Assembly: GCF_049354815.1 (NCBI RefSeq)
Contig: NZ_CP186479.1
Span: forward strand, 2,997,419 to 3,061,418
From: Devosia sp. CN2-171
Lineage (GTDB): Bacteria > Pseudomonadota > Alphaproteobacteria > Rhizobiales > Devosiaceae
DNA: 64,000 nucleotides
Direction of reading: 5' to 3'
Of the stretch, positions 4,439 to 57,932 are shown piece by piece. Under the pieces are notes generated by a model that had not been told where the DNA came from, ran no database searches, and saw only the letters and a program-made list of their open reading frames with translations. Positions within the stretch are counted from its first letter, which is position 1; every line of letters begins with the position of its first letter. A program made the translations under genes and the position numbers.

Positions 4439-4454
4439 GGTTTCACGTGAATCA
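4439..4454. promoter_or_regulatory. parS-like site GGTTTCACGTGAATCA (14/16 to TGTTNCACGTGAAACA)
   Basis: Read directly. Divergent intergenic region, OMP/esterase. Confidence 0.7.
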
Positions 4455-4663
4455 GCGGGCGGCAACGAGGGATGAGAGCCGATGCAACTGCGGACTCTTC
4501 CCAATCTCGCCGCAAGGCGGCCCAAATGTCTTCACATCGCGCGCTAAGGTGGGACGTGTTGAGAAGTGGATGCGGGAACCGTCAGCAGCGGTGCATCCAG
4601 AGAGGGCAAAGGGGTCCAGGCCACGGACCTGATGCCGGGGCGGCGACTTCGAAAGGGTATTGG

Positions 4664-5695
4664 ATGTCATCGGTAGAGGTGCGGCGGTACGCTCAGAACA
4701 GCGGACCGGATGCAACGGCTTCCCTTGAGCCGCCGGCCGAACGGCTGGACGCGGACATGCGTCACGTCCTCGGCGTGCTCGAGCAGATGGGCGGCAAGCG
4801 CATCGAGGCCTGCAAGTCGCCCGAAGCGCGCGCTCTGCCGACGCTCGACATGGCCCTGCGCCGGATCCTCCGCGATCAGGTCGACGACATGGATGTCAGC
4901 ATGGAGATGCGGCTCATCACCGGCCATACCGGCGATGTGCGGGCCCGCATCTACGTGCCGCAGAACGATATCGTCGCCGGCCCGCGGCCGATGATTCTCT
5001 TCCTCCATGGCGGCGGATTCGTGCTCGGCGACGTGGACAATTACGATGCGAGCCCGCGAGCCCTCGCGGCGCGCACCGGTGCGGTGGTGGTCTCGGCGCA
5101 TTACCGGCAGGCGCCGGAGCACCGTTTTCCGGCCGCGCACGAGGATGCCTGGTCGGCCTGGCAATGGCTGATCGAACATGCCCAGTCGCTCGGTGGCGAT
5201 CCGAAGCGTGCCGCGATCGTCGGCGAAGGCTCGGGCGCCAATCTCGCGGTCAACACGGCGCTCCGCGCCAAGGTCGAAGGCAAGCAGGCCCCGATCCACC
5301 TCGGGCTCGTCACCCCCATGGCGGCGATGCTGTTCGACCTGCCCTCGCATCAGCAGAACGCCACGACCTTCCCCTATTCCACCGCCACGCTCGAATGGGC
5401 GGCACGAAAACTCTTCCGCCACAAGGACGAGGCGCACGACGCGCGCATGAACATCGCCGGCCGGTTCGATCTCGACGGCTTGCCGCCGGTGACGGTGATC
5501 CTCGCCGAAGCCGATCCGCTGCGATCGGAAGGCGAGGCGCTCGCCGACGCCATCCGCCGCTCAGGCGTTTGGGTCGACGCCACGCTCTACGAGGGCGTGA
5601 CGCACGGCTTCTTCGGGCTCTACCGGGTGGTCAACAAGGCGATGTTCGCGCATGGCCAGCTGAGCCGGAACCTCGCCGCCGCCTTCGATCGCTGA
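4664..5695 (+). CDS. alpha/beta-hydrolase esterase/lipase (HSL-like family; HGGGF oxyanion motif)
   Basis: Translation contains LFLHGGGFVLGD and a GxSxG-like GEGSGAN nucleophile region. Start chosen at ATG 4664 (MSSVEVRRYAQ...). Confidence 0.7.
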   Translation: MSSVEVRRYAQNSGPDATASLEPPAERLDADMRHVLGVLEQMGGKRIEACKSPEARALPTLDMALRRILRDQVDDMDVSMEMRLITGHTGDVRARIYVPQNDIVAGPRPMILFLHGGGFVLGDVDNYDASPRALAARTGAVVVSAHYRQAPEHRFPAAHEDAWSAWQWLIEHAQSLGGDPKRAAIVGEGSGANLAVNTALRAKVEGKQAPIHLGLVTPMAAMLFDLPSHQQNATTFPYSTATLEWAARKLFRHKDEAHDARMNIAGRFDLDGLPPVTVILAEADPLRSEGEALADAIRRSGVWVDATLYEGVTHGFFGLYRVVNKAMFAHGQLSRNLAAAFDR

Positions 5696-5872
5696 TCGCT
5701 TCGGGGTTACCGCCTCGCGCGCCGCGGTGGATAAGCCACACCGCGGCTCTTCGTCGAACGGTATGCGTTGGATACCATTGAAGCGGTCCGCACCTATGGT
5801 AAGAGCGCACAGCAGTACTTATCTAGCCGGAATGCCTGGGACGGGGCACTGGGCAGCTGGGATCGAGACGGA

Positions 5873-7000
5873 TTGGCCAAACGCGACTTTTATGAAGTGC
5901 TCGGAGTGCCCAAGGGCGCCGACGAAGGGGTGCTGAAGGGCGCCTACCGCAAGCTTGCGATGCAGTTCCATCCGGACCGCAATCCGGGCAACGCCGATGC
6001 CGAGCACAAGTTCAAGGAAATCTCCGAAGCCTACGACACGTTGAAGGACCCGCAGAAGCGCGCGGCCTACGACCGGTTCGGGCATGCCGCCTTCGAGAAT
6101 GGCGGCGGACGCGGTCCGGGCGGCTTCGGGCCGGAATTCACCTCGTCGATGTCCGATATCTTCGAGGATATCTTCGGGGACTTCATGGGCGGTCAGCGCG
6201 GCCGCTCCGGCCAGTCGCGCCTCCGCGGCTCGGACCTGCGCTACAATCTCGAGATTTCGCTCGAGGAGGCATTTACCGGCCGCACCGTCGATATCGACGT
6301 GCCGACACTCGCCACCTGCGATACCTGCGACGGTTCGGGCGCCAAGCCCGGCACCGGCATGTCGACCTGCCGGCACTGCAACGGCCAGGGCAAGGTCCGC
6401 GCGGCGCAGGGCTTCTTCACCATCGAGCGCACCTGCCCGATCTGCAACGGCCGCGGCCAGATCCTCGAGCAGGCCTGCACCGATTGCGGTGGCCAGGGCC
6501 GTCGCCAGCAGAACCGCACGCTCAGCGTCGATATCCCCAAGGGGATCGAGGACGGCACCCGCATCCGCCTCGCCAACGAGGGTGAAGCGGGCCTGCGCGG
6601 TGGACCGCCGGGCGATCTCTACATCTTCATCTCGATCAAGCCGCACGACCTGTTCCAGCGCGACGGCGCTGACCTCTATGCCCGGGTCCCCATCGCCATG
6701 ACCACGGCAGCGCTGGGTGGCGAGTTCGAAGTACCGACGCTCGACGCCGCCCGCGCCCGGGTGAAAGTCGCCTCCGGTACGCAGCCGGGCCAGCGCGTCC
6801 GCCTCAAGGGCAAGGGCATGCCGATCCTCCGCTCGAAGGACTTTGGCGATCTCTACGTCCAGCTCGACGTCGAGACGCCGCAGAGCCTGTCGAAGCGCCA
6901 GCGCGAGTTGCTCGAAGAGTTCGAGAAGGAATCGACGCGCGAGAACTCGCCGACCAGCGAGGGCTTCTTCGCCAAGCTGAAGAGCATTTTCGAGGGCTGA
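5873..7000 (+). CDS. dnaJ: molecular chaperone DnaJ (J domain, G/F region, 4x CxxCxGxG zinc finger)
   Basis: Motifs [43 protein letters not shown] and CTDCGGQG are present. Probable TTG start at 5873. An upstream in-frame extension is unlikely. Confidence 0.92.
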
Positions 7001-7097
7001 GACGGGATCGGCCGGCGTCCGGCGCGCAGCCTGCTGACAAAAACTGGTCGTGGCCCGGACTAGCGTGGCGGCATTGTCCACCAGCTCCAGGCCCCAA

Positions 7098-7475
7098 ATG
7101 AAGTTCGCCTCAGTCCGTGTTGTCACCGACCAGTTCGACTTCGACGCCCTGGTCGATTTCTACGCTAGGCTCACCGGCGTGCGGCCGACGCGCCTCGCTC
7201 CCGGTTTTGGGGAGATCCGCCTCGAAGGCTGCACCTTGGCCATCTCGTCGCGCGAGATCATCGAGCGCGTGAACGGCGGCGCCGTCGTGCCCAACGCCAA
7301 CCGTTCCTTGATGCTCGAGTTCGAAGTCGACAACGTCGACGACCTGCTCGAGCGTGCGACGTCGCTGGCTCAGGTCGTCCAGCAGCCAACCACCATGCCG
7401 TGGGGCAATCGTTCGATGCTGCTCCGCGACCCTGACGGAGCAATCGTCAACATTTTCTCCCGACCCAACAGCTGA
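7098..7475 (+). CDS. VOC/glyoxalase-bleomycin-resistance-fold protein
   Basis: About 125 aa starting MKFASVRVVTDQFDF. Fold assignment is from overall pattern only. Confidence 0.5.
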   Translation: MKFASVRVVTDQFDFDALVDFYARLTGVRPTRLAPGFGEIRLEGCTLAISSREIIERVNGGAVVPNANRSLMLEFEVDNVDDLLERATSLAQVVQQPTTMPWGNRSMLLRDPDGAIVNIFSRPNS

Positions 7476-7524
7476 GAAGTGCCCGCACTTGCCAGCGGCG
7501 CCGTCGTGCCGCTAGCACTGCTTC

Positions 7525-8094: not shown

Positions 8095-8095
8095 G

Positions 8096-9148: not shown

Positions 9149-9262
9149 ACCCAACCGAATCTGACTTGCTATGGCGGCATACTGAGTGTCACGCCAGAGC
9201 GGCGCAAGCCTTGACCTCGGACCGCGACGCGTGGCACTAGCCAGAAAATCCGGAGACATCTG

Positions 9263-9961: not shown

Positions 9962-10011
9962 CGCCGGCCGCTGCGCTATAGCCCATCGCAAGCGTTAGTC
10001 GGGAGCCGGGC

Positions 10012-10821: not shown

Positions 10822-10831
10822 GAACTGATCG

Positions 10832-11446: not shown

Positions 11447-11458
11447 GGGCAACCAACC

Positions 11459-19302: not shown

Positions 19303-20036
19303 GCCGCCCTCACCTGCTTGAGCAGCGCCAGCGCTTCACGTGAATCAATGCGCCCGTCGTAAAGCGCACGACCTGAGATCGCGCCTTCGAGCACCTGGTA
19401 CTGCGGTTCGGTCATGGTCCGGATATCATCCATCGAGGCAAGCCCGCCCGAGGCGATCACCGGGATAGACACCGCCGTCGCAAGCTCCAGCGTCGAGGGC
19501 CAGTTGATGCCCTTGAGCACGCCGTCACGGTCGATATCGGTGTAGATTATCGCCGCGACCCCGGCCCCCTCGAAACGCTGGCCGAGCTCAATCGCCGTCA
19601 GCTCGGACGTTTCCGCCCAACCCTCGACCGCCACCTTGCCGCCACGCGCATCGATGCCGACCGCGACTTGCCCCGGAAACAGCCGCGCCGCTTCCCGCAC
19701 CAGCCCCGGATCACGCACCGCGACCGTGCCGAGGATGACGCGGGCGAGACCCTTGCCCAGCCAGCTCTCGATATGCGCGATGGTCCGGATACCACCACCG
19801 AGCTGTACCGGAAATTTCACCGCGCCGAGGATAGCCTCGACCGCGACGCCATTCACACTCTCGCCGGCGAACGCGCCGTTGAGATCGACGACATGCAGGT
19901 ACTCGAACCCCTGGTCCTCGAACGATTTCGCCTGCGCGGCGGGATCGTCATTGAACACGGTCGCCTGCGCCATGTCGCCCAGCTTCAGCCGGACGCACTG
20001 GCCATCCTTCAGGTCGATGGCGGGGAAAAGGATCAT
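19299..20036 (-). CDS. hisA: 1-(5-phosphoribosyl)-5-[(5-phosphoribosylamino)methylideneamino]imidazole-4-carboxamide isomerase
   Basis: [17 protein letters not shown]... SGGL. About 245 aa. The upstream extension is spurious. Confidence 0.92.
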
Positions 20037-26050: not shown

Positions 26051-26066
26051 TGTTCCACGTGAATCC
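26051..26066. promoter_or_regulatory. parS-like site TGTTCCACGTGAATCC (14/16)
   Basis: In the 30-bp gap between the convergent aminotransferase and GGDEF-EAL genes. Confidence 0.7.
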
Positions 26067-29373: not shown

Positions 29374-30345
29374 CTAACCGTTCGGCGCACCGAACCGGGC
29401 TTCGCGCTCAGCTAGCCCCTCGGCGAGCCGGCTGCGCAGGTCCACCATCCAGTACGGCTCGTCGGCAAAGGTTTCGGCCAGCGAGCGGCGCACCCGGGCG
29501 TACCAGTAGAGATCGGCGAAGCGTCGGCAAATGCCCCGTGCGCGGTCGAGATCGGGTGGCAGGGGCCGTGCCGAAGCGTAGCCGGCGAGAAATGCCGCCT
29601 CGCCGGCGTCGGCCCGCTCCGGATCGATCTCCTCGCGAACGCTCGCCACCGCCTGCTCAATGTCCATGGCGAACCAGTGGTACATCGCATCGTCGAAATC
29701 GATGGCATGGCAGCGGCCGGACGCGGCATCGAAGAAGACATTGTCACACTCGAGATCGTAGTGGCAGAGCCCGTAGGCGTCGGCGTCCCGCGGCAGTGCC
29801 GCCAGCGCGCCGGCCACCAGCTTCGCTTCGGCCCGAGCAGCGTCGGTCTCGAACCACGGCGCCATCCAGTCGAGCGCCTCGACATGGGACCAGCGCTGCG
29901 TGCCGGGTGGAGCGTAGTCGCGCGACAGCGTGTGCAACTCCGCCAATGCACGCCCATGCGCTGCGACGATCTCGTCTGCGAGGCCAGTCCGACCGAGCTG
30001 CTGGCCGGGAACCCGGCGAAATGCGGTGGCGACGAACGGTCCCCATTCGGTCTCGGACACAACCATCTGTTCGCCGCTGCGGCTGCTTATCGCCTCGGGT
30101 GCGCCAAAGCCGCGATCGCGCAGGTAGGCGATGAAGGCGAGTTCCGCCGCCACACTCTGCGGATCCTTCTCGGCCTGTGGCGCGAAGCGCAGGAAGTGCG
30201 GTTCGCCGCCGCGGAGGAAGACATAGATGGCGTTGGATGAAATCCGGTACCAGGGAAAGGGCTCCGGGTCGGGCACCCACTCGGCCGCCAGCGTTTCGGC
30301 CAGCGCGCGATTGTCGAACAGGTGTCTGAGCTTGAGCATCACGCC
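29374..30345 (-). CDS. aminoglycoside/choline-kinase-like phosphotransferase (APH family fold)
   Basis: Catalytic HYDLECDNVFFD (HxDxxxxN) and DFDDAMYH (DFD) motifs. Start at MLKLRHLF. The longer upstream ORF extension is spurious. Confidence 0.7.
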   Translation of the reverse strand, partial: GVMLKLRHLFDNRALAETLAAEWVPDPEPFPWYRISSNAIYVFLRGGEPHFLRFAPQAEKDPQSVAAELAFIAYLRDRGFGAPEAISSRSGEQMVVSETEWGPFVATAFRRVPGQQLGRTGLADEIVAAHGRALAELHTLSRDYAPPGTQRWSHVEALDWMAPWFETDAARAEAKLVAGALAALPRDADAYGLCHYDLECDNVFFDAASGRCHAIDFDDAMYHWFAMDIEQAVASVREEIDPERADAGEAAFLAGYASARPLPPDLDRARGICRRFADLYWYARVRRSLAETFADEPYWMVDLRSRLAEGLAEREARFGAPNG

Positions 30346-30462
30346 CCCCAGGGCAGGCATAGGGCATGCCGGCCATCGGATTGCCAAGAGTTTAGGTTTT
30401 CCCGGTTGCGCAAACTCCCGGCCTCGCCCATGTGAGGCGAACTTTCGAACCCCCCGAGAACG

Positions 30463-31359
30463 ATGCCCACGAACACCCCGCGCCGCGCCCTCATGCTGGT
30501 CAATCCGAACGCCCGCCGCGGCACGGCAGCGCTCGAACCGGTGATCGACCGCCTGAAGGCGGGCGACATCGAGGTCAGCATCGAGCGCTTCGATTCGCCG
30601 GACGAAGTCAGCGCCGACATCATCCGGCGCGGCGGAGAATTCGATCTCGTCATCGTCTGCGGCGGTGACGGCACGCTCAACTCGGCGGCGCGCGGCGTGC
30701 TCGCAACCGGGTTGCCCATGGGTATCCTGCCGATGGGCACGGCCAACGACCTCGCCCGGACGCTGGAGATCTCCGACAACTTGCTGCTGGCCGCGGACGT
30801 GATCATTGCCGGCAAGACGCGGCGGGTCGACCTCGGCGAAGTGAACGAGCACCCGTTCTTCAATGTCGCCAGCATCGGGCTCAGCGTCGCGCTCGCCAAC
30901 GGACTGAGCCGCGAAGCCAAGCGCCGCTGGGGTAAGCTCGGCTACGCACTCGCCGCGCTCAAGGTCCTCGCCCGCGCCAAGCCGTTCAAGGCGACGATCA
31001 TCTCCGCCCGCGGCGAGGAGAAGGTGAAGACGCTGCAGATCGCCGTCGGCAACGGCCGGCACTATGGCGGCGGCACGGTGATCGAGGCTAATGCCGCGAT
31101 CGACGACGGCCATCTCGATCTCTACAGCCTCGAGCAGGATAATGTGTTCAAGCTCTTGCTGCTGTTCGGCCACTTCCGCCGCGGCACCCACGGCGCCTGG
31201 GAAGAGGTGCGCACCGACAAATCGGTGGAGTTCGACATCCGCACCAGGGAGCCGATGGCGGTCAACACCGATGGCGACATCGTCACTTCGACGCCGGCAC
31301 ATTTCCTGATCCGCCCCGCCGCGATCGAAGTGTTCGCGCCGGTGCCGGCCGGCAGCTGA
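30463..31359 (+). CDS. YegS/BmrU-like lipid kinase (diacylglycerol-kinase catalytic domain)
   Basis: The DAGK_cat-type GGDGT motif is present. 298 aa. Confidence 0.8.
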   Translation: MPTNTPRRALMLVNPNARRGTAALEPVIDRLKAGDIEVSIERFDSPDEVSADIIRRGGEFDLVIVCGGDGTLNSAARGVLATGLPMGILPMGTANDLARTLEISDNLLLAADVIIAGKTRRVDLGEVNEHPFFNVASIGLSVALANGLSREAKRRWGKLGYALAALKVLARAKPFKATIISARGEEKVKTLQIAVGNGRHYGGGTVIEANAAIDDGHLDLYSLEQDNVFKLLLLFGHFRRGTHGAWEEVRTDKSVEFDIRTREPMAVNTDGDIVTSTPAHFLIRPAAIEVFAPVPAGS

Positions 31360-31364
31360 CCCAC

Positions 31365-31380
31365 CGTTTCACGTGAATCC
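31365..31380. promoter_or_regulatory. parS-like site CGTTTCACGTGAATCC (13/16)
   Basis: Between the convergent lipid-kinase and SPFH genes. Confidence 0.65.
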
Positions 31381-32969: not shown

Positions 32970-33041
32970 CGTGATGGAGGGATTCGAACCCTCTACAGTC
33001 AGATTACAAATCTGATGCTCTTACCCAATGAGCTACATCCA
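32970..33041 (-). tRNA. tRNA-like gene, closest to tRNA-Thr(TGT); D-, anticodon- and T-arms canonical but the acceptor stem pairs only 4/7 as read
   Basis: The reverse complement gives TA-GCTC-ATTGGGTAA-GAGC, an anticodon arm TCAGA-TTTGTAA-TCTGA and a T-arm GAGGG-TTCGAAT-CCCTC. The 5' acceptor ATGGATG does not pair fully with the 3' CATCACG. An alternative reading of the loop gives a GTA anticodon. Confidence 0.5.
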
Positions 33042-33114
33042 TGGAGCACACAGCAGGGATCGAACCCGCGACCTCCGGATCATCTCCGGCGCTCTGCCAC
33101 TGAGCTAGGTGCGC
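33042..33114 (-). tRNA. tRNA-like gene with CCA and a non-canonical shortened anticodon arm (CCGG-AGATGAT-CCGG or CCGGA-GATGA-TCCGG); possibly a pseudogene
   Basis: Canonical D-arm (GCTC-AGTGGCA-GAGC), T-arm (GCGGG-TTCGATC-CCTGC) and acceptor (6/7 pairs). The anticodon arm is 1-2 nt short and position 33 is not U. It directly abuts the downstream tRNA-like gene. Confidence 0.4.
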
Positions 33115-40387: not shown

Positions 40388-41217
40388 AGCGTCGCCTCCA
40401 CCTTCTGGCGCAGCTCCGCCGTCACCTCCGGCCGCACCCCGAACCAGGCCTCGAAGCCGGGAACCGCCTGGTGCAGCAGCATGCCAAGCCCGTCGACGGT
40501 GCGAACCCCGACGGCTCGTGCATCGGCGAGAAGCGGCGTCATCAGAGGCACGTAGACGATATCGGTCACCAGCGCCGTCTCAGGCAGCAGGCCGAGGTCG
40601 AGATCGTCGAAGCGGGACTCGTGCATGCCGATCGAGGTGGTATTGACCAGGAGGTCGGCGCCACCGGCATAGAAGGCGAAGTCGCTAAGCCGGCCCGGCG
40701 TGAAGGGGCCGTCGATCTCCCGCGCCAGTGCCTCGGCCTTTTCGGGCGTGCGATTGAGCAGCACGATTTCCTTGAACCCCCGTTCGCGCAGGGCGACGAG
40801 GATGGCCCGGGCCGCGCCGCCGGCGCCGAGGACGATGGCTCGACCCAGCCGTACGCTCCAGCCTGGGGCGTTCTGGTCGAGATTGCCGAGAAAGCCCATG
40901 TAGTCGGTGTTGAAGCCGCGGATGCGGCCGCCTTCTTCACGCACCAGCGTATTCACCGCACCGATCGTTTCGGCCAGCGGGTCGATGCTGTCGCAGAGGC
41001 GGAACACCTCCTCCTTGTGGGGAATGGTCACATTGCCGCCGACAAACTCGCCGGCCCGTACGCGCCCAACGAACCCGGCCAGATCGTCCGGCGCCACATC
41101 TATGGCGTCATAACTTCCGGCAATTGCGTGCTCGGCCAGCCAGGTGCCGTGGATCAGCGGCGAGCGCGAGTGCCTTATGGGATGGCCGATGACGAAGGCT
41201 TTTTTCACGTGAATCAT
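40384..41217 (-). CDS. aroE: shikimate dehydrogenase
   Basis: GAGGAARAI Rossmann motif and an NRT motif. The start codon is embedded in a parS site. Confidence 0.9.
   Translation of the reverse strand: MIHVKKAFVIGHPIRHSRSPLIHGTWLAEHAIAGSYDAIDVAPDDLAGFVGRVRAGEFVGGNVTIPHKEEVFRLCDSIDPLAETIGAVNTLVREEGGRIRGFNTDYMGFLGNLDQNAPGWSVRLGRAIVLGAGGAARAILVALRERGFKEIVLLNRTPEKAEALAREIDGPFTPGRLSDFAFYAGGADLLVNTTSIGMHESRFDDLDLGLLPETALVTDIVYVPLMTPLLADARAVGVRTVDGLGMLLHQAVPGFEAWFGVRPEVTAELRQKVEATL
41201..41216. promoter_or_regulatory. parS-like site TTTTTCACGTGAATCA (14/16), overlapping the aroE start codon
   Basis: Read directly. Encodes MIHVK at the aroE N-terminus. Confidence 0.65.
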
Positions 41218-41835: not shown

Positions 41836-41879
41836 CCCGGGGTTTTCCACATTGTGCTTGCTGGCTCAAGTTGGCCCTC

Positions 41880-41888
41880 GGTGGATAA
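41880..41888 (-). promoter_or_regulatory. DnaA box-like 9-mer TTATCCACC (8/9 to TTATCCACA)
   Basis: Read directly. Confidence 0.5.
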
Positions 41889-41963
41889 CCAACCCGGCAC
41901 GGCGTCATCCCAACTTGTCCCCGCTCGGACGAAATCCATCAACAGGCGGCGGCGTGCAGATCG

Positions 41964-41978
41964 TTAACAGACCGTTAA
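41964..41978. promoter_or_regulatory. CtrA box TTAACAGACCGTTAA (TTAA-N7-TTAA)
   Basis: Read directly. Confidence 0.6.
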
Positions 41979-42061
41979 GGTGAGTTCCGGGGAAAACCCA
42001 TTGCGTATGCCGAGCCGTCGTCCACACACTCGTTAAGACTTTCTCAACCACTATGGCATGG

Positions 42062-42076
42062 TTAACGCCCCGTTAA
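42062..42076. promoter_or_regulatory. CtrA box TTAACGCCCCGTTAA (TTAA-N7-TTAA)
   Basis: Read directly. Confidence 0.6.
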
Positions 42077-42175
42077 TCCCGGTGACTCCCGCTCCTGTCC
42101 ACGGGCTCCACCGGCGCAGTTTGCACAGGCATCGCGAGCCACCCTGCCGCGCGCTTCTGTCGCCGCGATCCGCGT

Positions 42176-42184
42176 TGTGGAGAA
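42176..42184 (-). promoter_or_regulatory. DnaA box-like 9-mer TTCTCCACA (8/9)
   Basis: Read directly. Confidence 0.45.
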
Positions 42185-42209
42185 GGGTGAATTCCTGCAA
42201 AACACCGCC

Positions 42210-42248
42210 ATGATAATACAAATGAAGAATCTAGATTCTTTTGGTTGG
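42210..42248. promoter_or_regulatory. AT-rich stretch (candidate DNA-unwinding element and hemE promoter) with two GANTC sites
   Basis: TGATAATACAAATGAAGAATCTAGATTCTTTTGGTTGG is far below the local GC content. Confidence 0.5.
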
Positions 42249-43741: not shown

Positions 43742-43757
43742 CGTTTCACGTGAATCC
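43742..43757. promoter_or_regulatory. parS-like site CGTTTCACGTGAATCC (13/16)
   Basis: In the hemJ-rho intergenic region. Confidence 0.65.
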
Positions 43758-45291: not shown

Positions 45292-46617
45292 ATGCGTAGC
45301 GATGACACCATCGTCGCCCTGTCCTCAGGCTCCGTTCCCTCGGGCGTCGCCATCATCCGGTTCTCGGGCCCGGCAGCCGGTCGGGTTCTAATCGAGATGC
45401 TCGGCGCCCTCCCCGAACCCCGACGCCTGACCCTTGCCGACATCCGCCTCGACGGCGAAACTCTCGATCGAGGCCTCATCGCCTGGATGCCCGGCCCCAA
45501 CAGCTTCACCGGCGAAGATTGCGCCGAACTCCAGGTGCACGGCTCGCCGGCCGTCGTCCGCGTAATCCTTCGCCGGCTCAGCTCACAATCTGGCATCAGG
45601 CTGGCCGAAGCCGGGGAATTCACCCGCCGCGCTTTCGAGAACGGCAAGCTCGATCTCGTCGAAGCCCAGGGCCTCGGGGATCTGATCGAGGCCGAAACCG
45701 AGAATCAGCGCGCCCTGGCCTATTCGCGCATGGAGGGTGGGCTGACCCGGCAGGTCGAAGGCTGGCGCGAGCGCCTGCTGGATCTCCGTGCCGAGATCGA
45801 AGCACAGCTCGATTTCTCTGACGAAGGCGACGTCGGTGCGCTTCCCGATACTTTTGCCGCCGAGGTTGAGGCGCTGAATGACGATATTGGCGACGTGCTG
45901 GCGACGCGCGGCCAGGGCCGAATCCTGCGGAGCGGCTTTCGTGTTGTGCTCGCGGGTCCGCCGAACGCCGGCAAGTCGAGCCTGCTTAATGCCCTGTCTC
46001 GTTCAGAGGTGGCCATCGTCTCCGATGAGCCGGGCACCACGCGCGACCTCAAGGAAGCACCGCTCGACGTCCACGGCCAACTCATCATCCTGATCGATAG
46101 CGCCGGCCTGAGGGATACGAGTTCGAAAGCCGAAGCGATCGGTGTCGAACGGGCGAAGCAGGCGATGATCGGAGCAGATCAGGTGCTTTGGCTACAGGCC
46201 CCGGATATCGCGGCGGTCCTCCCACCGATTTTTCCCGAGTTCGACACAGAGCCCTGGCGACGCCCGCCGATCATGATTGTCGGCACGAAGGCCGATATCG
46301 GGTTGGTAGAAGGTGCGCACCTGTCCGTTTCCGTCACAACCGGGGAAGGCATAGAGGCACTGCTGGACAAGCTCTACGAAGTATCAGGAGCTGGCTCCGT
46401 TCAGGCCTCGGAGCTGCTGGTGAGCCACGAGCGGGATCGCGAGGCCCTGCTGGGGGCTGTCATGGCGCTGGCGCGAGTTTCGGAACAGTTGGACAATCCA
46501 GAACTGGCTGCTGAGGAGTTGCGGGCCGCGTCCTATGCGCTCGAGCGACTGCTTGGCCGCATGGATGCGGAGTCGGTGCTCGACCGTCTGTTCAGCGCCT
46601 TTTGCATCGGCAAGTGA
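45292..46617 (+). CDS. mnmE: tRNA modification GTPase MnmE (TrmE)
   Basis: G-domain GPPNAGKSSLLN, DEPGTTRD and a C-terminal CIGK motif. The stop codon is part of a parS site. Confidence 0.93.
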   Translation: MRSDDTIVALSSGSVPSGVAIIRFSGPAAGRVLIEMLGALPEPRRLTLADIRLDGETLDRGLIAWMPGPNSFTGEDCAELQVHGSPAVVRVILRRLSSQSGIRLAEAGEFTRRAFENGKLDLVEAQGLGDLIEAETENQRALAYSRMEGGLTRQVEGWRERLLDLRAEIEAQLDFSDEGDVGALPDTFAAEVEALNDDIGDVLATRGQGRILRSGFRVVLAGPPNAGKSSLLNALSRSEVAIVSDEPGTTRDLKEAPLDVHGQLIILIDSAGLRDTSSKAEAIGVERAKQAMIGADQVLWLQAPDIAAVLPPIFPEFDTEPWRRPPIMIVGTKADIGLVEGAHLSVSVTTGEGIEALLDKLYEVSGAGSVQASELLVSHERDREALLGAVMALARVSEQLDNPELAAEELRAASYALERLLGRMDAESVLDRLFSAFCIGK

Positions 46618-46630
46618 TTCACGTGAAACG
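46615..46630. promoter_or_regulatory. parS-like site TGATTCACGTGAAACG (14/16), contains the mnmE stop codon
   Basis: Read directly. Confidence 0.7.
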
Positions 46631-46686: not shown

Positions 46687-46702
46687 TGATTCACGTGAAA
46701 CA
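46687..46702. promoter_or_regulatory. parS site TGATTCACGTGAAACA (15/16)
   Basis: In the mnmE-mnmG intergenic region. Confidence 0.75.
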
Positions 46703-48606: not shown

Positions 48607-49250
48607 TGGACGCAATCGACCGGCTTTCGGAGCATTTTCATCGGCCCGCCACCCTGGTGCGCACCGATCTGGAATCGTTTGCCACGCTGCTGCGCAAATG
48701 GAACGCTGTGCAGAATCTTGTTTCACGTGAAACAGAGTCGGCGCTGTGGGACCGGCACATCGTCGATTCCGTCCAGATTCTGCCGCTGCTTCGCCGCTCC
48801 GATGAACGCTTTCTGGACATCGGTTCAGGTGGCGGACTGCCGGCGATTCCGCTGGCCATTGCGCTAAAGGGTGGCCCGGCGAAGTTCCAGCTGGTCGAGC
48901 CGATCACCAAGAAGGTCGCCTTCCTGCGCCAGGCCATCCGCGAATTCGGCCTCGCGGCACAGGTGCATGCCGGCCGCAGCGACGATTTTGATTCACGTGA
49001 AACATCGCCGGTCGAGTTTGACGTGATCACCTCCCGCGCCCTCGCGGCGCTGCCGATGCTGCTGGGACTTATCCACCCCTTCTTTGGCCCGGAAACCCGC
49101 GCAATCCTGCACAAGGGGCGAGACTACGCGCGCGAACTCGAAGAAAGCCGTTTGGCCTGGGACTTTGACGTGGTATTAACCGACAGCGCCACGGAAATGG
49201 GCGCCGTATTGCTGCAGATCAGCAATTTGCGAATAAAACCAGTTAGTTAG
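48603..49250 (+). CDS. rsmG: 16S rRNA (guanine527-N7)-methyltransferase RsmG (GidB)
   Basis: SAM-binding [15 protein letters not shown]. Contains two in-frame parS sites. Confidence 0.9.
48719..48734. promoter_or_regulatory. parS site TGTTTCACGTGAAACA (16/16, perfect palindrome), inside the rsmG CDS
   Basis: Read directly. Confidence 0.85.
48989..49004. promoter_or_regulatory. parS site TGATTCACGTGAAACA (15/16), inside the rsmG CDS
   Basis: Read directly. Confidence 0.8.
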
Positions 49251-49274: not shown

Positions 49275-50075
49275 TTGGCTCCTCGTATCCTGACCCTTGC
49301 CAACCAGAAGGGCGGAGTCGGTAAGACCACCACCGCCATCAACCTTGCGACCGCCCTCGCCGCCATCGGCGAGCGCGTGCTGATCGTTGATCTCGATCCA
49401 CAAGGCAATGCGTCCACCGGGCTCGGTATCAGCCGTCTCGGGCGCGACGTATCGAGTTATGACCTGCTGATGGGCGATGCCCGGGTGGCTGAAGCCGCCG
49501 TGATGACGAGTGTGCCCAACGTCGCGATCGTGCCCTCGACGCTCGACCTGCTCGGCGTCGAGTTGACAATCGCGCAGCAGGCCGATCGCGCCTTCCGGCT
49601 GCGCGACGCCTTCAAGGCCATGCATGAGCTGACCATCAATGGCCAGCATGTCAGCTACGTGCTGATCGATTGCCCGCCCTCGCTTAACCTGTTGACGATC
49701 AACGCACTTGTGGCTGCCGATGCGGTGTTGGTGCCGCTGCAGTGCGAGTTTTTTGCACTCGAGGGCATGAGCCAGCTGCTGCAGACGATCGAGCAGATCC
49801 GCTCGACGCTCAACCCACGGCTCAGCATCCAGGGCGTAGTGATGACCATGTTCGATCGGCGCAACAATCTCAGCGAGCAGGTGCTGCAGGACGTGCGATC
49901 GGAGATGGGATCGCTGGTTTACGATACTGTGATACCGCGCAATGTCCGGCTCTCCGAAGCGCCATCCTACGGCAAGCCGGCACTGCTCTACGACCTCAAA
50001 TGCGCAGGCAGCCAAGCGTATCTCCGCCTTGCCACCGAGGTGATCCGGCGCGAGCGGCAGCTCGTAGCGGCATGA
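49275..50075 (+). CDS. parA: chromosome partitioning ATPase ParA (Soj)
   Basis: Deviant Walker A KGGVGKTT. TTG start. Confidence 0.93.
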   Translation: MAPRILTLANQKGGVGKTTTAINLATALAAIGERVLIVDLDPQGNASTGLGISRLGRDVSSYDLLMGDARVAEAAVMTSVPNVAIVPSTLDLLGVELTIAQQADRAFRLRDAFKAMHELTINGQHVSYVLIDCPPSLNLLTINALVAADAVLVPLQCEFFALEGMSQLLQTIEQIRSTLNPRLSIQGVVMTMFDRRNNLSEQVLQDVRSEMGSLVYDTVIPRNVRLSEAPSYGKPALLYDLKCAGSQAYLRLATEVIRRERQLVAA

Positions 50076-50086
50076 AGGAACTTGCA

Positions 50087-50959
50087 ATGAACGAGAAACC
50101 CTCCCGGCTCGGGCGCGGCCTCGCAGCGCTGATCGGCGATATGGCGACCATGGAGGGCGCGCGGCTAGCCGATAGCGGCAGCGGGAAGCGCCTGCCGGTC
50201 GATTTCCTCATCGCCAACCGGGCCAATCCGCGCCGGGAGTTCGATGCCGAACAGCTCGAGGAGCTGACGAACTCGGTGCGCGAGAAGGGCGTGATGCAGC
50301 CCTTGCTCGTCCGGCCGACCACCGATCCGAACATGTTCGAGATCATCGCCGGCGAGCGCCGCTGGCGTGCCGCGCAGCGCGCCGGCCTCTCCGATGTTCC
50401 GGTGGTCGTGCGCGAAGTCGACGACAAAGAAGCGCTCGAACTCGCGATCATCGAGAACGTCCAGCGCGTCGACCTCAATCCGCTCGAAGAAGCAATGGGT
50501 TACGGCCAGCTGATCGAGCAGTTCGATTACACGCAGAACGACCTCGCCCAGGTCATTGGCAAGTCGCGCTCGCATGTCGCCAACACGTTGCGGCTGCTAA
50601 AGCTGCCGGAGGACGTGCGCGGAATGATGGCGCGCGGCGAGCTAACGGCCGGTCACGCCCGCACGCTGATCACCGCCGAGGATCCGACGGCCCTCGCCCG
50701 CCGCATCGTCGGTGGCGGCCTTTCGGTGCGCGAAGCTGAGGTGCTGACCCAGCGCGAGCTCGCGTCGCCGAAGAAGAAGGCCGCACCGGCGCCGCAGAAG
50801 GACGCCGACACCGCGGCGCTCGAGAAGCGCCTGTCGGACGTGCTCGGCCTCCACGTCGCCATCGACCACAAGGAGCAGGGCGGCCGCCTCGAAATCCGCT
50901 ACCGCACGCTCGAACAGCTCGACGGCATCTGCATGAAGCTTACTGGTTACGGGGTCTAG
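50087..50959 (+). CDS. parB: chromosome partitioning protein ParB (Spo0J), CTPase clamp
   Basis: ParB-box GERRWRAA and an HTH motif. About 290 aa. Confidence 0.93.
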   Translation: MNEKPSRLGRGLAALIGDMATMEGARLADSGSGKRLPVDFLIANRANPRREFDAEQLEELTNSVREKGVMQPLLVRPTTDPNMFEIIAGERRWRAAQRAGLSDVPVVVREVDDKEALELAIIENVQRVDLNPLEEAMGYGQLIEQFDYTQNDLAQVIGKSRSHVANTLRLLKLPEDVRGMMARGELTAGHARTLITAEDPTALARRIVGGGLSVREAEVLTQRELASPKKKAAPAPQKDADTAALEKRLSDVLGLHVAIDHKEQGGRLEIRYRTLEQLDGICMKLTGYGV

Positions 50960-51090
50960 TCGCCTAACTGGCAGAAGGTCACGGCCTATCGATGCACCTT
51001 GTGTGGAACTTCAGGTCCAGGTCCGCCTGAGTTCTGGCTCAGTCCCGCTTCAGAATCCGTTCATGAGCGTTCAGAATCCGGTCGCAGTCA

Positions 51091-51107
51091 GGGCAGCTGG
51101 CCTGCCC
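51091..51107. terminator. hairpin GGGCAG-ctggc-CTGCCC between the convergent parB and holA genes
   Basis: Read directly. Confidence 0.4.
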
Positions 51108-51117
51108 TATTACATCG

Positions 51118-51133
51118 TGCTCCACGTGAAACA
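51118..51133. promoter_or_regulatory. parS site TGCTCCACGTGAAACA (15/16)
   Basis: Between the convergent parB and holA genes. Confidence 0.75.
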
Positions 51134-51138
51134 TTCGG

Positions 51139-52670: not shown

Positions 52671-55284
52671 TGATGATCCTGTCCGGAACGATCACGACCT
52701 TCTTGGGCGGCTTGCCGTCCAGCATGCGGGCAACCGCGTCGATAGACAAGGCCTCGCGCTCGACGAGGTCGTTTGGCGACCCCTTGGGCACGGTGATCTC
52801 GCCGCGGCGCTTGCCGTTGACCTGCACCGGGATGATGACGTCGGAATCGACCAGCAGCGCCGGATCGGCCGCGGGCCAGCCGGCGTCGCAGATCATGCCG
52901 GACTTGCCCAGCGCGGCCCAGCAGGCCTCGGCGAGGTGCGGCATCATCGGCGCGACGAGCTGGATCAGGCGCTCGATACCCTCATGCAGGGCGCCGATGC
53001 GGCCCGGCGTCGGGTTGGCGGCGGTAGCGGCGATGAACTTGGCGAGCCCGTTGCTCAGCTCGTAGATCTGGGCTACAGCGCGATTGAAGCGCAGCCCTTC
53101 GATCTCGGTGCCGACATTGGCGACGGTGCGGTGGACGAGCCGCCGGATGGTCGCCGTCTCATCGTCCGACATATCGGGCGCGCCGGCGGGATTGCCGAAA
53201 AGGTCCAGCGCATCGCCGACCAGCTTCCAGACGCGCTGCAGAAAGCGCGACGAGCCTTCGATGCCCGCTTCCGTCCACTGCACGTCGCGCTCCGGCGGTG
53301 AGTCCGACAGCATGAACCAGCGGGCCGTATCGGCGCCGTAGGTGCGGACGATCTCGTCCGGGTCGACGACGTTCTTCTTCGATTTGCTCATCTTTTCGAT
53401 GGAGCCAATCTCGATGGCGGCGCCGGTCGTCGCATGCACGGCCGTGCGGTTATCGCCGCCGGAAATGGTGATGTCGGCCGGCGAGACCCATTCGCCACTC
53501 GCGTCGCGATAGGTCTCGTGCACCACCATGCCCTGGGTGAAGAGGCCCTTGAACGGCTCTTCGATGTTGAGGTGCCCCGTCTTCTTCATCGCTCGCGTGA
53601 AGAAGCGCGAATAGAGCAGGTGCAGGATCGCATGCTCGACGCCGCCGATGTACTGATCGACCGGCAGCAGCGAGTTGGCAACGCCCGGAATGGTCGGGGT
53701 CTCGGCATGCGGCGCGGTAAAGCGGGCAAAATACCAGGAGCTGTCGACGAACGTGTCCATCGTGTCGGTCTCGCGCGTCGCGGCGCCACCGCATTTGGGG
53801 CAGGCGACGTGCTTCCAGGTCGGATGGTGGTCGAGCGGATTGCCGGGTCGATCGAAGGTCACGTCCTCGGGCAGCACCACCGGCAGGTCCTTGTCGGGAA
53901 CCGGCACGGTGCCGCAGTTCTCGCAGTGGATCACCGGGATCGGGCAGCCCCAGTAGCGCTGACGGCTGACGCCCCAGTCGCGCAGGCGATAGTTGACCTC
54001 AACCGTGCCCTGCGGCCGGTTGTCGAGGGCGCGGGCGCCAAAATACTCGGCGATCTTCTTCTTGGCGGCGTCGATCTCGAGCCCGTCGAGGAAGTCCGAG
54101 TGATAGATGCGGCCCGGGCCGTTGTAGGCCTCGGCCTCCACCTCGAACTCGCCGGCGTCGGCGCCTTCCGGCAGCACCACCGGGATCACCGGCAGGCCGT
54201 ACCGACGGGCGAAGTCGAGGTCGCGCTGGTCATGCGCCGGGCAGCCGAAAATGGCGCCGGTGCCGTAGTCCATCAGCACGAAGTTCGCGACATAGACGGG
54301 CAGCGTGGCGCCGGGCTTGACGGGATGTTTCACGTGCAAGCCGGTGAAAACACCCAGCTTTTCGGCCTTGTCGATGGCTTCGGTAGCCGTTCCCTGGCGG
54401 TGCGTCTCGGCGATGAAAGCGGCGATCGCCGGCTGCTCAGACAGGGCCTTCGCCAGCGGATGGTCGGCAGAAATGGCAATGAAGCTCGCGCCGAAGATGG
54501 TGTCCGGGCGGGTGGTGAAGACCTCGATCGAGGTGCAATCGTCCTTCGGGGTGTCGAGCTCGAACAGCAGCCGCAGGCCTTCGGACTTGCCGATCCAGTT
54601 GCGCTGCATGGTGCGCACCTTCTCCGGCCAGTGGTCGAGCGTATCGAGCGCCTCCAGCAGGTCCTCGGCATAGTCGGAGACCTTGAAGGCCCACTGGTTG
54701 AGTTCGCGCTGCTCAACGACCGCTCCCGAGCGCCAGCCCCGGCCATCGACCACCTGCTCGTTGGCGAGCACGGTCATGTCGACGGGATCCCAGTTCACCT
54801 TGGATTTGCGGCGGGTAACGAGGCCCTCGCGCAGCATGTCGAGGAAGAGCTTCTGCTGCTTGGAATAATACTCGACGTCGCAGGTGGCGAACTCGCGCGT
54901 CCAGTCGATGCCCAGCCCGATCGATTTCAGCTGGTCGCGCATGGTGGCGATGTTGGCGTAGGTCCAGGCCTTGGGGTGGACCTTGTTCTGCATGGCGGCA
55001 TTCTCGGCCGGCAGGCCGAAGGCGTCCCAGCCCATCGGGTGCAGCACGGCAAAGCCCTTGGCACGCTTGTAGCGCGCCAGCACGTCGCCCATGGTATAGT
55101 TGCGCACGTGCCCCATGTGGATGCGGCCGGACGGATAGGGGAACATCTCGAGCACGTAGTAGGGCTCGCGCGTGTCGCCGGGTTCGAGCACGAAGGAACG
55201 CGCCTCGTCCCAGGCCTTCTGCCACCGCGGCTCTTCGACACGCGGATTGTAGCGCTCGCTCGTTCTACCAGTCACTTCGGACAC
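52657..55284 (-). CDS. leuS: leucine--tRNA ligase
   Basis: 875 aa. HIGH motif ([11 protein letters not shown]) and KMSKS motif. Confidence 0.96.
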
Positions 55285-55376
55285 GTCCTCAAAGTCGCAG
55301 TTTGCGTTGCGTTCACAGGGGTTTTTGGCTACCGGACCTTCATCAGAATTCCGTTAACCGGTCAACAGAGAGCGCC

Positions 55377-56042
55377 ATGCCGACCGCTGCCGAGCGCCTG
55401 GAGAATATCATCGACCGGATCGAGACGGCACGCCGCCGTTTTGGTCCACCGCCGGACCGTGTGCAGCTGGTCGCGGTCTCGAAGACGTTCGATGCCGCAG
55501 CAATCCGGCCGTTTCTTGACGCCGGGCAGCGCGTCTTCGGTGAGAACCGGGTGCAGGAAGCGCAGAGCAAGTGGCCTGAGCTGCGGGTCTCCTATGACGG
55601 CATAGAACTGCATCTAATCGGGCCGTTGCAGACCAACAAGGCCCGCGAAGCGGTAGCGCTGTTCGATGTGATCCAGACTGTCGATCGCGACAAGCTCGCC
55701 GGCGTGCTCCGCGCCGAGATGGGCCGGGCCGGCCGGCAGCTGCCGGTGTTCGTGCAGGTCAATATCGGCCGCGAGGAGCAAAAGGCAGGCATAGCGCCGC
55801 TCGAGGCGGTGGAATTCGTGGCGCGCTGTCGGAGCGTCCACGGGCTCGATGTCGTCGGCCTCATGTGCATCCCGCCGGAGGGCGATCCGGCCGGACCCTA
55901 TTTTGCCCATCTCGCCGCGCTGGCACGCGACGCGAAGGTGGAGAAGCTGTCCATGGGGATGAGCAACGATTTCGAAACCGCCATCGCCATGGGCGCAACG
56001 CATGTCCGCGTCGGCAGTGCGTTGTTCGGGGCACGGGGCTAA
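55377..56042 (+). CDS. yggS: YggS-family pyridoxal-phosphate homeostasis protein
   Basis: LVAVSKT lysine motif and an alanine-racemase-N-like fold. About 221 aa. Confidence 0.85.
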   Translation: MPTAAERLENIIDRIETARRRFGPPPDRVQLVAVSKTFDAAAIRPFLDAGQRVFGENRVQEAQSKWPELRVSYDGIELHLIGPLQTNKAREAVALFDVIQTVDRDKLAGVLRAEMGRAGRQLPVFVQVNIGREEQKAGIAPLEAVEFVARCRSVHGLDVVGLMCIPPEGDPAGPYFAHLAALARDAKVEKLSMGMSNDFETAIAMGATHVRVGSALFGARG

Positions 56043-56437
56043 TTCCGCGCGGGTGCTATGGTGGCATAGCAGCCCGCTGCGGGGCTGAGTAGTTGGCCGA
56101 CATCGTGCCCACAACGCAGGGCAGACCCATGTGCTCGAACACCTCCCGGTGCGGGAGGCCCAACCCACGAACCTCCAGCAGCAGTCGTCCCAGCGCAGGC
56201 TGAGACCCAAGCTCAGCGGGTGCGAGCTGAGAGAGATGGATCCCTGCCTTTGCAGGGATGACGCCGAGGTTGGTCGGACCTGCAGTGAACGTCGGCTCTC
56301 ATACATGGCAGGACGCCGGTCGCCAGCGACCACCAACATACTAGTGACCTAGTTCCATTGTCCTTGCCGCAAGGCCTCGCCTGTCAGCGTCCTGTCAGCT
56401 TTCGGCGTCTATCGAATTTAGGCGGACCCAGGTGAAA

Positions 56438-56451
56438 CTTTGACGTGTCAA
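56438..56451. promoter_or_regulatory. 14-bp perfect palindrome TTTGACgtGTCAAA, flanked by GAAAC/GTTTC, about 105 bp upstream of the response-regulator gene; candidate operator
   Basis: Read directly. Confidence 0.4.
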
Positions 56452-56554
56452 ATCACGTTTCTAGTCGTGTAGCGATGTAACGCCGTTTTGATTGGCCGGG
56501 CGTGCGGGCCCAGCATAACTCAGGAATACAGGGCCGATGGCTTGGGGTAACACG

Positions 56555-57238
56555 ATGAATAGACGGCGTATTCTGATCGTTGATGACGATGGCGACCTGC
56601 GCAAGACTCTCGTCGATCAGCTGAACCCCTACCGCGAGTTCGACCTCGTCGAAGCAGAAACGGCCGCAGATGCGCTGGGCAAGGTGCGTGGCGCCCATAT
56701 CGACCTGATGCTGCTCGATGTCGGCCTGCCCGACATGGATGGGCGCGAGGCGGTGAAAATCCTCCGCCGCGAGGGCTTCAAGAGCCCGATCATCATGCTG
56801 ACCGCGCAGGACAGCGACGCCGACGAGATCCTCGGGCTCGAATCCGGCGCCAACGACTATGTGACCAAGCCCTTTCGCTTCTCGGTGCTGCTGGCCCGCA
56901 TCCGTGCCTCGCTGCGCCAACACGACCAGAGCGAGGACGTGGTTTTCACCATCGGGCCCTACAGCTTCCAGCCGGCGGCCAAGATGCTCGAATCGCCGGA
57001 TGGTCAGAAGGTGCGGCTGACCGACAAGGAAACCTCGATCCTGAAATATCTCTACCGGCAGGGTCCCAAAACCATCACCCGCGAGATTCTGCTGAAGGAA
57101 GTGTGGGGGTACAACAACCGCGTCACCACCCACACGCTCGAGACGCACATCTACCGCCTGCGCCAGAAAATCGAGCGCGATCCGTCCAACGCCCGGCTCC
57201 TCGTTACCGAAGAGGGCGGCTATCGGCTGGTGCCGTAA
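56555..57238 (+). CDS. OmpR/winged-helix family response regulator (CtrA/CenR-like subfamily)
   Basis: Receiver domain with the phospho-acceptor region LLDVGLPDMDG and a C-terminal trans_reg_C domain (...THIYRLRQKI). Confidence 0.8.
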   Translation: MNRRRILIVDDDGDLRKTLVDQLNPYREFDLVEAETAADALGKVRGAHIDLMLLDVGLPDMDGREAVKILRREGFKSPIIMLTAQDSDADEILGLESGANDYVTKPFRFSVLLARIRASLRQHDQSEDVVFTIGPYSFQPAAKMLESPDGQKVRLTDKETSILKYLYRQGPKTITREILLKEVWGYNNRVTTHTLETHIYRLRQKIERDPSNARLLVTEEGGYRLVP

Positions 57239-57449
57239 GGCGCAGCCGCCTGGCCGGGACGCGGGGTCCCTCCCTCCCTGCGTCCCTGCCGGTTTTTCCC
57301 CCACCCGGTGCATAACCCGGCGGCTTTCCACCAGCTGGGGCAAAATCGGTTCCTGACATCGGGAAGAAATGCTCTATATCGGGGGCTGCGGCACGACCGG
57401 GCGCCATCTGGCGCTCGCGACTGAAGCGCGGTGCGGGAATAAGGGCGGG

Positions 57450-57905
57450 ATGCAACTCGACGACGCTGCGACCATATTGGGACGTGCGGATTTCTTCGAA
57501 ATCTGCGACGCCGAGCAGAGGCGTCTGCTTGCGTTTGCGTCCGAGCGCAAGAAGTTCCGGCCCAACTCGGTGATCTACTCCGCCGGCGACATGCCAGAGG
57601 GCGCGCATGTGCTCGTCTCGGGCACGGTGTCGAGTACCCAGGAGGGGGCCGAGAACAACCCGTTCCTGATCCATGATGTCGGCTCCGTCCTCGGCGCGAT
57701 GGGCCTCGTGATTGCCAAGCCGCGGCCCGTGACGATCAAGGCGATCGATGCGGTCGAAACGCTGTTCGTGCCGCGCACGGCGTTCATGAAGCTTGCCAAC
57801 CAGTATCCTGACCTCGCCGGCCGGGCGGCGGACCGCATCCGCCGCGAGCTGACCGGCTATCTCGGCGCCATCGAAGAGGCGCGGGGCCGGTTCAGGAAGG
57901 GCTGA
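57450..57905 (+). CDS. cyclic-nucleotide-binding domain protein lacking an obvious DNA-binding domain (Crp/Fnr-family-like)
   Basis: About 151 aa, cNMP-binding beta-barrel only. Confidence 0.55.
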   Translation: MQLDDAATILGRADFFEICDAEQRRLLAFASERKKFRPNSVIYSAGDMPEGAHVLVSGTVSSTQEGAENNPFLIHDVGSVLGAMGLVIAKPRPVTIKAIDAVETLFVPRTAFMKLANQYPDLAGRAADRIRRELTGYLGAIEEARGRFRKG

Positions 57906-57916
57906 GGCCGGCCGGA

Positions 57917-57932
57917 CGTTCCACGTGAATCA
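57917..57932. promoter_or_regulatory. parS-like site CGTTCCACGTGAATCA (14/16), overlapping the ridA stop codon
   Basis: Fills the gap between two convergent genes. Confidence 0.7.

Follow-up and report, generated by a model that had tools for sequence, protein, structure and literature searches.

What kind of element is the 16-bp palindrome that recurs around the replication origin of Devosia sp. CN2-171, and why is one of its two arms altered in the same way in most of its copies? We analyzed the 64-kb origin region of this bacterium, referred to below as the window, which has a GC content of 62-68% along its length. Devosia belongs to the Devosiaceae in the order Hyphomicrobiales, and not to the Sphingomonadales, the lineage assumed in an earlier note on this DNA. 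Judging from its sequence, the region is a chromosomal centromere, in which the parS sites of a ParABS system flank oriC beside the parAB genes. Most of these sites carry in one arm the motif GANTC, the recognition sequence of CcrM, an adenine methyltransferase of the alphaproteobacterial cell cycle.

A parS array on both sides of the origin

We counted as a site any 16-mer that matched TGTTNCACGTGAAACA with at most three mismatches, considering both strands. This search yielded 26 strand-hits in the window, corresponding to 13 loci, where 0.68 strand-hits are expected (Table 1). All eleven coordinates listed in the earlier note are among them, with zero to three mismatches each and with the copy at 48719 matching perfectly, as had been stated; two further sites, at 19332 and 54326, had been missed. 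The chance estimate made for the 10-bp core TTCACGTGAA holds in so far as this core is strongly enriched (9 occurrences in the window against 0.05 expected), but three of the eleven listed sites, those at 26051, 51118 and 57917, do not contain it and have TCCACGTG or CACGTGGA instead.

The 13 sites are spread over about 54 kb and lie on both sides of oriC, at distances of 37.6, 22.7, 16.0, 10.7 and 0.85 kb to its left and of 1.7, 4.6, 4.6, 6.7, 6.9, 9.1, 12.3 and 15.9 kb to its right, with a density that drops with distance from the origin within the window. Four are located between convergent genes (26051, 31365 and 57917, which have a GANTC arm, and 51118, which does not), four or five are inside coding sequence, and several are upstream of genes (rho, mnmG). 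When all copies were aligned with 30 bp on each side, conservation was bounded exactly by the 16-mer, with random flanking columns, and the same was true of the alignments across orthologues. Annotation of the window with Pfam domains confirmed the presence of parA and parB, which the earlier note had reported. We identify the sites as parS because they match the consensus and are enriched, show no conservation past the 16-mer, adjoin parA and parB, neighbour oriC and are conserved in position. The claim that the motif is under strong selection is supported.

To place the array among its relatives, we collected about 60 Devosia loci, each with 10 kb of flank on either side, by a ParB scan of species-representative genomes, and outgroup loci by a metagenome scan with a ParB alignment, in which the other alphaproteobacterial ParBs were 46-57% identical. 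Sites and arms were counted with a single criterion for all groups. One locus from a Parvularculaceae metagenome-assembled genome (L063) was left out of the comparison because its 570-residue ParB-like protein is not an orthologue of the chromosomal ParB; this locus is GANTC-enriched (observed/expected 1.9), unlike all other alphaproteobacterial loci examined.

Devosiaceae have a median of 7 sites per ~21 kb (range 5-9), spanning about 13 kb, 4.5 of them (median) with a GANTC arm. For Rhizobiaceae and Phyllobacteriaceae the medians are 4 sites and 2 GANTC arms over a span of about 8 kb, and for other alphaproteobacteria 4 sites and 0 GANTC arms over about 2 kb. In the same frame of ±10 kb the window has 9 sites, and 13 overall. 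For an alphaproteobacterium, the array is dense and unusually dispersed.

The site classes at the aroE start, upstream of rho, between mnmE and mnmG (two), in rsmG (two), downstream of parB and at the far right recur in all of the ~60 Devosia loci, and the left-arm classes at the end of hisA and downstream of the aminotransferase gene are kept in Devosia sp. A16 as well as in two more genomes. Orthologous classes are also found in Rhizobiaceae and Phyllobacteriaceae. In most other alphaproteobacteria, all sites are perfect GTTTCACGTGAAAC copies and lie at mnmE-mnmG and in rsmG. The rsmG site at 48719 is an ancient one, common to other members of the class; its inner 14 bp are identical across 55 of 55 Devosia loci.

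A CcrM motif in one arm of the sites

Ten of the 13 sites are heteropalindromes with the half-sites TGTTTCAC and GTGAATCA and contain exactly one GANTC each. The earlier note had remarked on the asymmetric GAATC arm and suggested a lineage-specific variant half-site; the asymmetry and its lineage specificity are borne out, but that reading overlooked that the variant arm, GAATC or GATTC, is an instance of GANTC, whereas the canonical arm GAAAC is not. A single T-to-A change at position 3 is sufficient to turn the canonical arm into GANTC. The sites of the window depart from the 14-bp core consensus 18 times, and this change accounts for 10 of these cases (P ~2e-9 under a uniform spectrum of changes). 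GANTC is otherwise rare: the window contains 108 copies against 330±16 expected, a threefold depletion of the kind described for CcrM-bearing Alphaproteobacteria (PMC3973325), and about one tenth of these copies are inside parS sites.

Across Devosia, 232 of 346 parS-like sites have one internal GANTC, 114 have none and not a single one has two. The state of each arm is stable within site classes. In the class upstream of rho (44 loci), which is purely intergenic, T14 is present in 44 of 44 sites and T3 in 43 of 44, while the flanks are random and the outermost positions vary freely (position 1: C17/T16/G7/A4; position 16: C22/G11/T11). T14 is likewise present in all 18 Devosia loci that have the far-right class, and A3 in 99 of 99 sites of the mnmE-mnmG pair (46615 and 46687). 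The symmetric classes, the first rsmG site and the one downstream of parB, remain symmetric throughout the genus, and canonical arms remain canonical.

These patterns, read from alignments, indicate purifying selection on the base that defines GANTC. Since the ParB dimer is symmetric and both half-sites are equivalent to it, a neutral T or A should flip between species, and a base that is better or worse for binding should spread to both arms or be purged from both. The stable coexistence of two arm states within each site therefore calls for a second constraint on the variant arm.

Outside Devosia, GATTC or GAATC arms are found nearest in Rhizobium and Ciceribacter (L078, L082), in Agrobacterium (L149-L153) and in one further locus (L054). 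Nitratireductor (L070) and a relative (L071) have GACTCACGTGAAAC at five sites with unrelated flanks; the GACTCAC arm of this type has two mismatches to parS and keeps G-A-N-T-C while N differs. In the ParB loci of other alphaproteobacteria, none of 170 arms reads GATTCAC, though many of these loci are GANTC-depleted too. The Nitratireductor locus and its relative also contain four tandem parS sites within ~130 bp at mnmE/mnmG (L070:6335-6471, L071:6447-6556), two or three of which have GACTC arms and the last of which is perfect.

GANTC motifs also cluster around the rsmG sites. A hot-spot in the 5' part of rsmG, at 48672-48994 around both parS sites, contains 7 motifs in 320 bp, compared to a genome mean of 1 in 590 bp. 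Over 53 Devosia loci, the median for the surroundings of the rsmG pair is 4 GANTC per 360 bp, where the background is 0.68, an enrichment of about 6-fold. The GAATC next to the perfect rsmG site contains an AAT codon; since AAT makes up 30% of Asn codons, the interpretation of this GAATC as a selected feature is only suggestive.

The ParB that would read these sites contains the motifs GERRWRA and ENVQR. In an alignment to 6T1F it keeps the equivalents of Caulobacter R173 and G201, and KSRSH and TAGHAR are conserved. R173 and G201 define parS specificity in Caulobacter ParB; R173 touches the guanine beside the variant base, and the recognition helix occupies the major groove there (PMC7383237). 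The equivalent of Caulobacter A184 is a lysine, located in LRLLKLP, and the resulting combination R-T-K-G is promiscuous in a Caulobacter background (Jalal et al. 2020). We rejected Lys184 as an explanation of the variant sites: position 184 fails to separate the lineages with GANTC arms from other alphaproteobacteria, and lysine is a common residue there among ParBs at large, including those of two loci from outside the Alphaproteobacteria (L061, L062). In a search for co-variation, only Q141 and C282 separated the two groups; neither is a known DNA contact, and both are probably clade markers. In the complete genome of Devosia sp. A8/3-2 (CP104974.1, L055:9992-10306) the parB frame ends after about 105 codons within an otherwise intact parS array, a frameshift or sequencing error.

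Table 1. Sites of the parS array, partition genes and probable origin, in coordinates of the 64-kb window.
Feature	Coordinates	Strand	Sequence or evidence	GANTC arm	Context
parS	4439..4454	+	GGTTTCACGTGAATCA	right	intergenic, divergent OMP and hydrolase genes either side
parS	19332..19347	+	CGCTTCACGTGAATCA	right	3' end of His_biosynth gene; kept in Devosia A16, L146, L148
parS	26051..26066	+	TGTTCCACGTGAATCC	right	between convergent aminotransferase and GGDEF-EAL genes; kept in L146, L148, L144
parS	31365..31380	+	CGTTTCACGTGAATCC	right	between convergent DAGK-like and Band-7 genes
parS	41201..41216	+	TTTTTCACGTGAATCA	right	over aroE start/maf stop (ATGA, minus strand)
parS	43742..43757	+	CGTTTCACGTGAATCC	right	intergenic, hemJ/rho; cleanest case for invariant variant base
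parS	46615..46630	-	TGATTCACGTGAAACG	left	TGA is mnmE stop codon
parS	46687..46702	-	TGATTCACGTGAAACA	left	intergenic, mnmE/mnmG
parS, perfect	48719..48734	.	TGTTTCACGTGAAACA		inside rsmG, codons V-S-R-E-T; abutted by GAATC (48713) and GAGTC (48735)
parS	48989..49004	-	TGATTCACGTGAAACA	left	inside rsmG (D-S-R-E-T); variant base is second base of Asp codon
parA	49275..50075	+	Pfam		ParA/MinD-type ATPase
parB	50072..50959	+	Pfam ParB_N, HTH_ParB, ParB_C		
parS	51118..51133	.	TGCTCCACGTGAAACA	none	between convergent parB and downstream minus-strand gene
parS, weak candidate	54326..54341	.	TGTTTCACGTGCAAGC		3 mismatches; inside leuS; variable among Devosia
parS	57917..57932	+	CGTTCCACGTGAATCA	right	between convergent cNMP-binding and RidA-like genes
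probable oriC	41843..42244	.	CtrA-type motifs, DnaA-box-like sites, lower GC, double-GANTC palindrome		maf/hemE gap

Two gene boundaries are built into sites of the array. The stop codon of mnmE (46615-46617) provides bases 1-3 of one parS, and the overlapping maf stop and aroE start (41214-41217) lie inside another. Both arrangements are also present in Rhizobium and Agrobacterium, where the site at 41201, which is conserved in Devosia, reads TGTTTCACGTGAATCA.

Proposed methylation of the variant arm and its alternatives

We lean towards the view that this is a parS array of a ParABS system whose GANTC arm is kept as a methylation site, with ParB nucleation there depending on methylation. By analogy to characterised ParABS systems, ParB dimers would nucleate on each 16-bp site, close as sliding clamps bound to cytidine triphosphate (CTP) and spread onto the flanks, while ParA would move the partition complex and SMC would probably be loaded there too. 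The GANTC arm would be maintained as a target of CcrM, which would place N6-methyladenines in the major groove read by the ParB recognition helix; the methyl groups would be at half-site positions 2 and -4 (numbering of Jalal et al.), beside the guanine contacted by R173. If CcrM acts as it does elsewhere, the GANTCs of parS would carry methyl groups on both strands up to initiation and on one strand only from the firing of the origin until CcrM returns late in the cycle; in Caulobacter, ori-proximal GANTCs are hemimethylated in ~80% of cells (PMC3973325). ParB nucleation at the ten sites with a GANTC arm would then follow their methylation state, in a direction that is not predictable from sequence, and the perfect sites in rsmG and downstream of parB, which are not methylatable, would give constitutive ParB binding.

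Several points weigh against a role of methylation. Pfam annotation found no methyltransferase gene in the 64-kb window, and we therefore infer CcrM from the depletion of GANTC and from the known CcrM content of the order. In Agrobacterium tumefaciens, depletion of CcrM makes no measurable difference to the share of cells that show two ori1 foci (PMC11514494), so that any effect in this species would be modulatory and not essential. The cross-species site counts within Devosia come from related loci and are hence not phylogenetically independent. On the window alone, the absence of sites with two GANTCs is marginal (P=0.055). GANTC arms face the origin in 8 of 10 cases and are on the right side, in plus-strand orientation, in 7 of 10, neither of which is significant. 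Finally, coding sequence confounds the sites at 46615 (mnmE stop), 41201 (maf stop and aroE start) and 48989 (middle base of an Asp codon), and the confounded classes include both GANTC-arm sites of Agrobacterium. The argument thus rests on the intergenic sites at 43742, 46687, 57917, 26051, 31365 and 4439 and on those of Nitratireductor. An orientation rule for the GANTC arm, which we had considered, was dropped since the bias is not significant and the mnmE-mnmG pair is inverted in one locus (L054).

A serious possibility, though a doubtful one, is that the array is an ordinary one in which GANTC is incidental: the ParB of this clade would tolerate T-to-A at position 3, and the heteropalindromes would be weaker sites, tuned in affinity or fixed by codons, with no role for methylation. 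This would agree with the location of position 3 outside the known specificity-determining bases (PMC7383237), with the asymmetry of Caulobacter parS, where one half is conserved as well (PMC5815017), with the lysine of ParB at the 'permissive' position 184, with the three coding-confounded classes and with the largely normal duplication and segregation of ori1 in Agrobacterium on CcrM depletion. However, a neutral T or A should flip, yet each arm holds its state next to positions saturated with change, and if A3 were the better or the worse base, the arms should converge and A3/A3 should sometimes occur, which it does in none of the 346 sites. Affinity could be tuned by many substitutions, yet more than half of the deviations are the one that creates GANTC. 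Further, the GACTC arms of Nitratireductor have gained a second mismatch while GANTC stays, and elsewhere in the genome the motif is strongly avoided. We consider it quite improbable that a third factor, GcrA or another reader of N6-methyladenine, recognizes the GANTC arm in composite sites, or that ParB occupancy keeps GANTC hypomethylated as an epigenetic mark. GcrA and CcrM do form a conserved alphaproteobacterial module (PMC11514494), Caulobacter is known to have hypomethylated GANTCs that are shielded by protein (PMC5172544), several sites are upstream of rho and mnmG, and GANTCs cluster around the rsmG pair, but no promoter is to be expected at three GANTC-arm sites (26051, 31365, 57917), which are flanked by convergent genes, and no second conserved motif flanks the 16-mer.

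That the palindrome is no ParB site at all, but an operator of another CACGTG-binding regulator or a repeat of the repetitive extragenic palindromic (REP) or miniature inverted-repeat transposable element (MITE) type, is extremely improbable and already largely refuted. In its favour, many copies are intergenic. Yet the copies follow the universal parS consensus, perfect parS is found at the same places (mnmE-mnmG, rsmG) in diverse ParB-encoding alphaproteobacteria, and a 21-kb control locus of Devosia away from the origin contains no copy. We rejected an operator regulon since the copies are not specific to promoters, occurring both within genes and between convergent ones, and a REP/MITE-type, mobile or otherwise extended repeat since neither the window nor the orthologues have conserved sequence or structure beyond the edges of the 16-mer.

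A broader proposal, which we regard as rather unlikely, is that parS in Devosiaceae, Rhizobiaceae and Phyllobacteriaceae can be switched epigenetically, with CcrM methylation of the one GANTC arm altering ParB nucleation or CTP-clamp loading and fork passage licensing or remodeling the partition complex once per cycle. If methylation does act in this way, centromere activity would be coupled to replication by a simple mechanism, and the differences between lineages in parS number and sequence, which reviews treat as unexplained (PMC7333895), would have a reason. Asymmetric sites would moreover leave sister chromosomes with different hemimethylated forms, methylated at the inner or the outer adenine, which could even tell old-pole from new-pole centromeres in polar-growing bacteria. 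The methylation model is directly testable, as Agrobacterium tumefaciens has the same feature, together with a CcrM-depletion strain, methylomes and chromatin immunoprecipitation sequencing of ParB1. Should methylation prove irrelevant, the analysis would still document a heteropalindromic parS specific to this lineage and, in Devosia, an array of 13 sites that is unusually dispersed.

Related systems and the origin neighbourhood

One of the closest known counterparts is that of Caulobacter crescentus (sites 1-7; Toro 2008, Tran 2018), whose chromosomal ParABS also has several 16-bp sites a few kb from a CtrA-box origin beside hemE, partly within essential genes and with one half better conserved. 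In contrast to the 13 Devosia sites on both chromosome arms, however, its five strong sites lie within ~5 kb on one arm. The Caulobacter variants are of the TGTTCCAC or GAAAAC types, and none of sites 1-5 (Tran et al. 2018) has a GANTC arm, whereas the Devosia variant almost always has the GANTC-creating base.

Arrays with many origin-proximal copies of the same consensus are also known from B. subtilis (8-10 sites), P. aeruginosa (10), Streptomyces coelicolor and Listeria innocua, where they are bound by CTP-dependent ParB that spreads and loads SMC. Sites in these arrays vary at positions 1, 5, 12 and 16, and none of the arrays is known to have a methyltransferase motif built into one arm of its sites. 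The earlier note had ranked the number of sites at the high end for bacterial chromosomes; it is high for an alphaproteobacterium, but not extreme across bacteria, given the 20-23 sites of S. coelicolor and L. innocua (PMC7333895; PMC5815017).

With respect to methylation, the variant arm resembles the CcrM/GANTC switches in the promoters of ctrA, dnaA, ftsZ and mipZ and in repABC/ori2 of A. tumefaciens, which also have GANTC within a protein-binding site near the origin and in which fork passage takes the site from full methylation to hemimethylation for most of the cycle. Yet these known cases are promoters, or repABC with GANTCs near parS (PMC11514494, PMC9040568), whereas in Devosia the motif is inside a chromosomal ParB half-site. 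Another parallel is the control exerted through Dam hemimethylation in gammaproteobacteria (SeqA at oriC, IS10, V. cholerae RctB), where methylation near the origin gates protein binding once per cycle, but with another methyltransferase, motif and set of binding proteins, and in no case with ParB and parS. In Caulobacter, 'GANTCs at the parS locus' have served as a methylation control (PMC5172544). The literature searched contained no relevant description of GANTC-bearing heteropalindromic parS, of the exact variant sequences, of methylation-sensitive ParB or of CcrM in Devosia. As a parS array, the locus belongs to a familiar type; heteropalindromic parS with a GANTC arm is previously undescribed in that literature. 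No cell-cycle modules of alphaproteobacteria have been studied better than ParABS and CcrM/GcrA, and the two have so far been treated separately; a methylation motif kept inside the ParB half-site would join them.

The neighbourhood of the array is of the classic alphaproteobacterial origin type. By Pfam annotation, secB, a dnaQ-like gene, coaE, aroE and maf are followed by a 300-bp gap, to the right of which are hemE, hemJ, rho, mnmE, mnmG, rsmG, parA and parB, and then leuS, ftsK and dnaE on the minus strand. The earlier prediction of an origin at ~42 kb is supported by the features of the maf/hemE gap. It contains the only two copies of the CtrA-type motif TTAA-N7-TTAA in the 64 kb (41964 and 42062; 0.02 expected), DnaA-box-like 9-mers at 41843, 41880 and 42176, and a lower GC content. 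The minimum of the GC skew is broad (45-51 kb), and the cumulative minimum is a few kb to the right of the gap. Altogether, the gap resembles a Caulobacter-type origin. At its edge, directly upstream of hemE, lies a perfect 16-bp palindrome, AAGAATCTAGATTCTT (42225-42240), with two GANTCs 2 bp apart, of which GAATCTAGATTC is kept in 10 closely related Devosia loci.

Two further observations concern the left part of the window. Two tandem tRNA-like elements are located on the minus strand at 32973-33114. The upstream one (33114-33045) has a CCA end and a 5-nt anticodon loop and is called as tRNA-His with the odd anticodon 'atg' by ARAGORN. Its downstream neighbour (33039-32973) has a GC content of 45% and lacks a complete acceptor stem. 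The pair may represent degenerate tRNAs or what is left of an integration site. In addition, a minus-strand open reading frame of 642 residues (29374-31359), with an APH phosphotransferase domain at ~29559-30231, overlaps the plus-strand DAGK/YegS-like gene at 30463-31359. Third-position GC in the overlap favours the plus-strand gene, and the APH gene therefore probably starts further downstream than its longest open reading frame.

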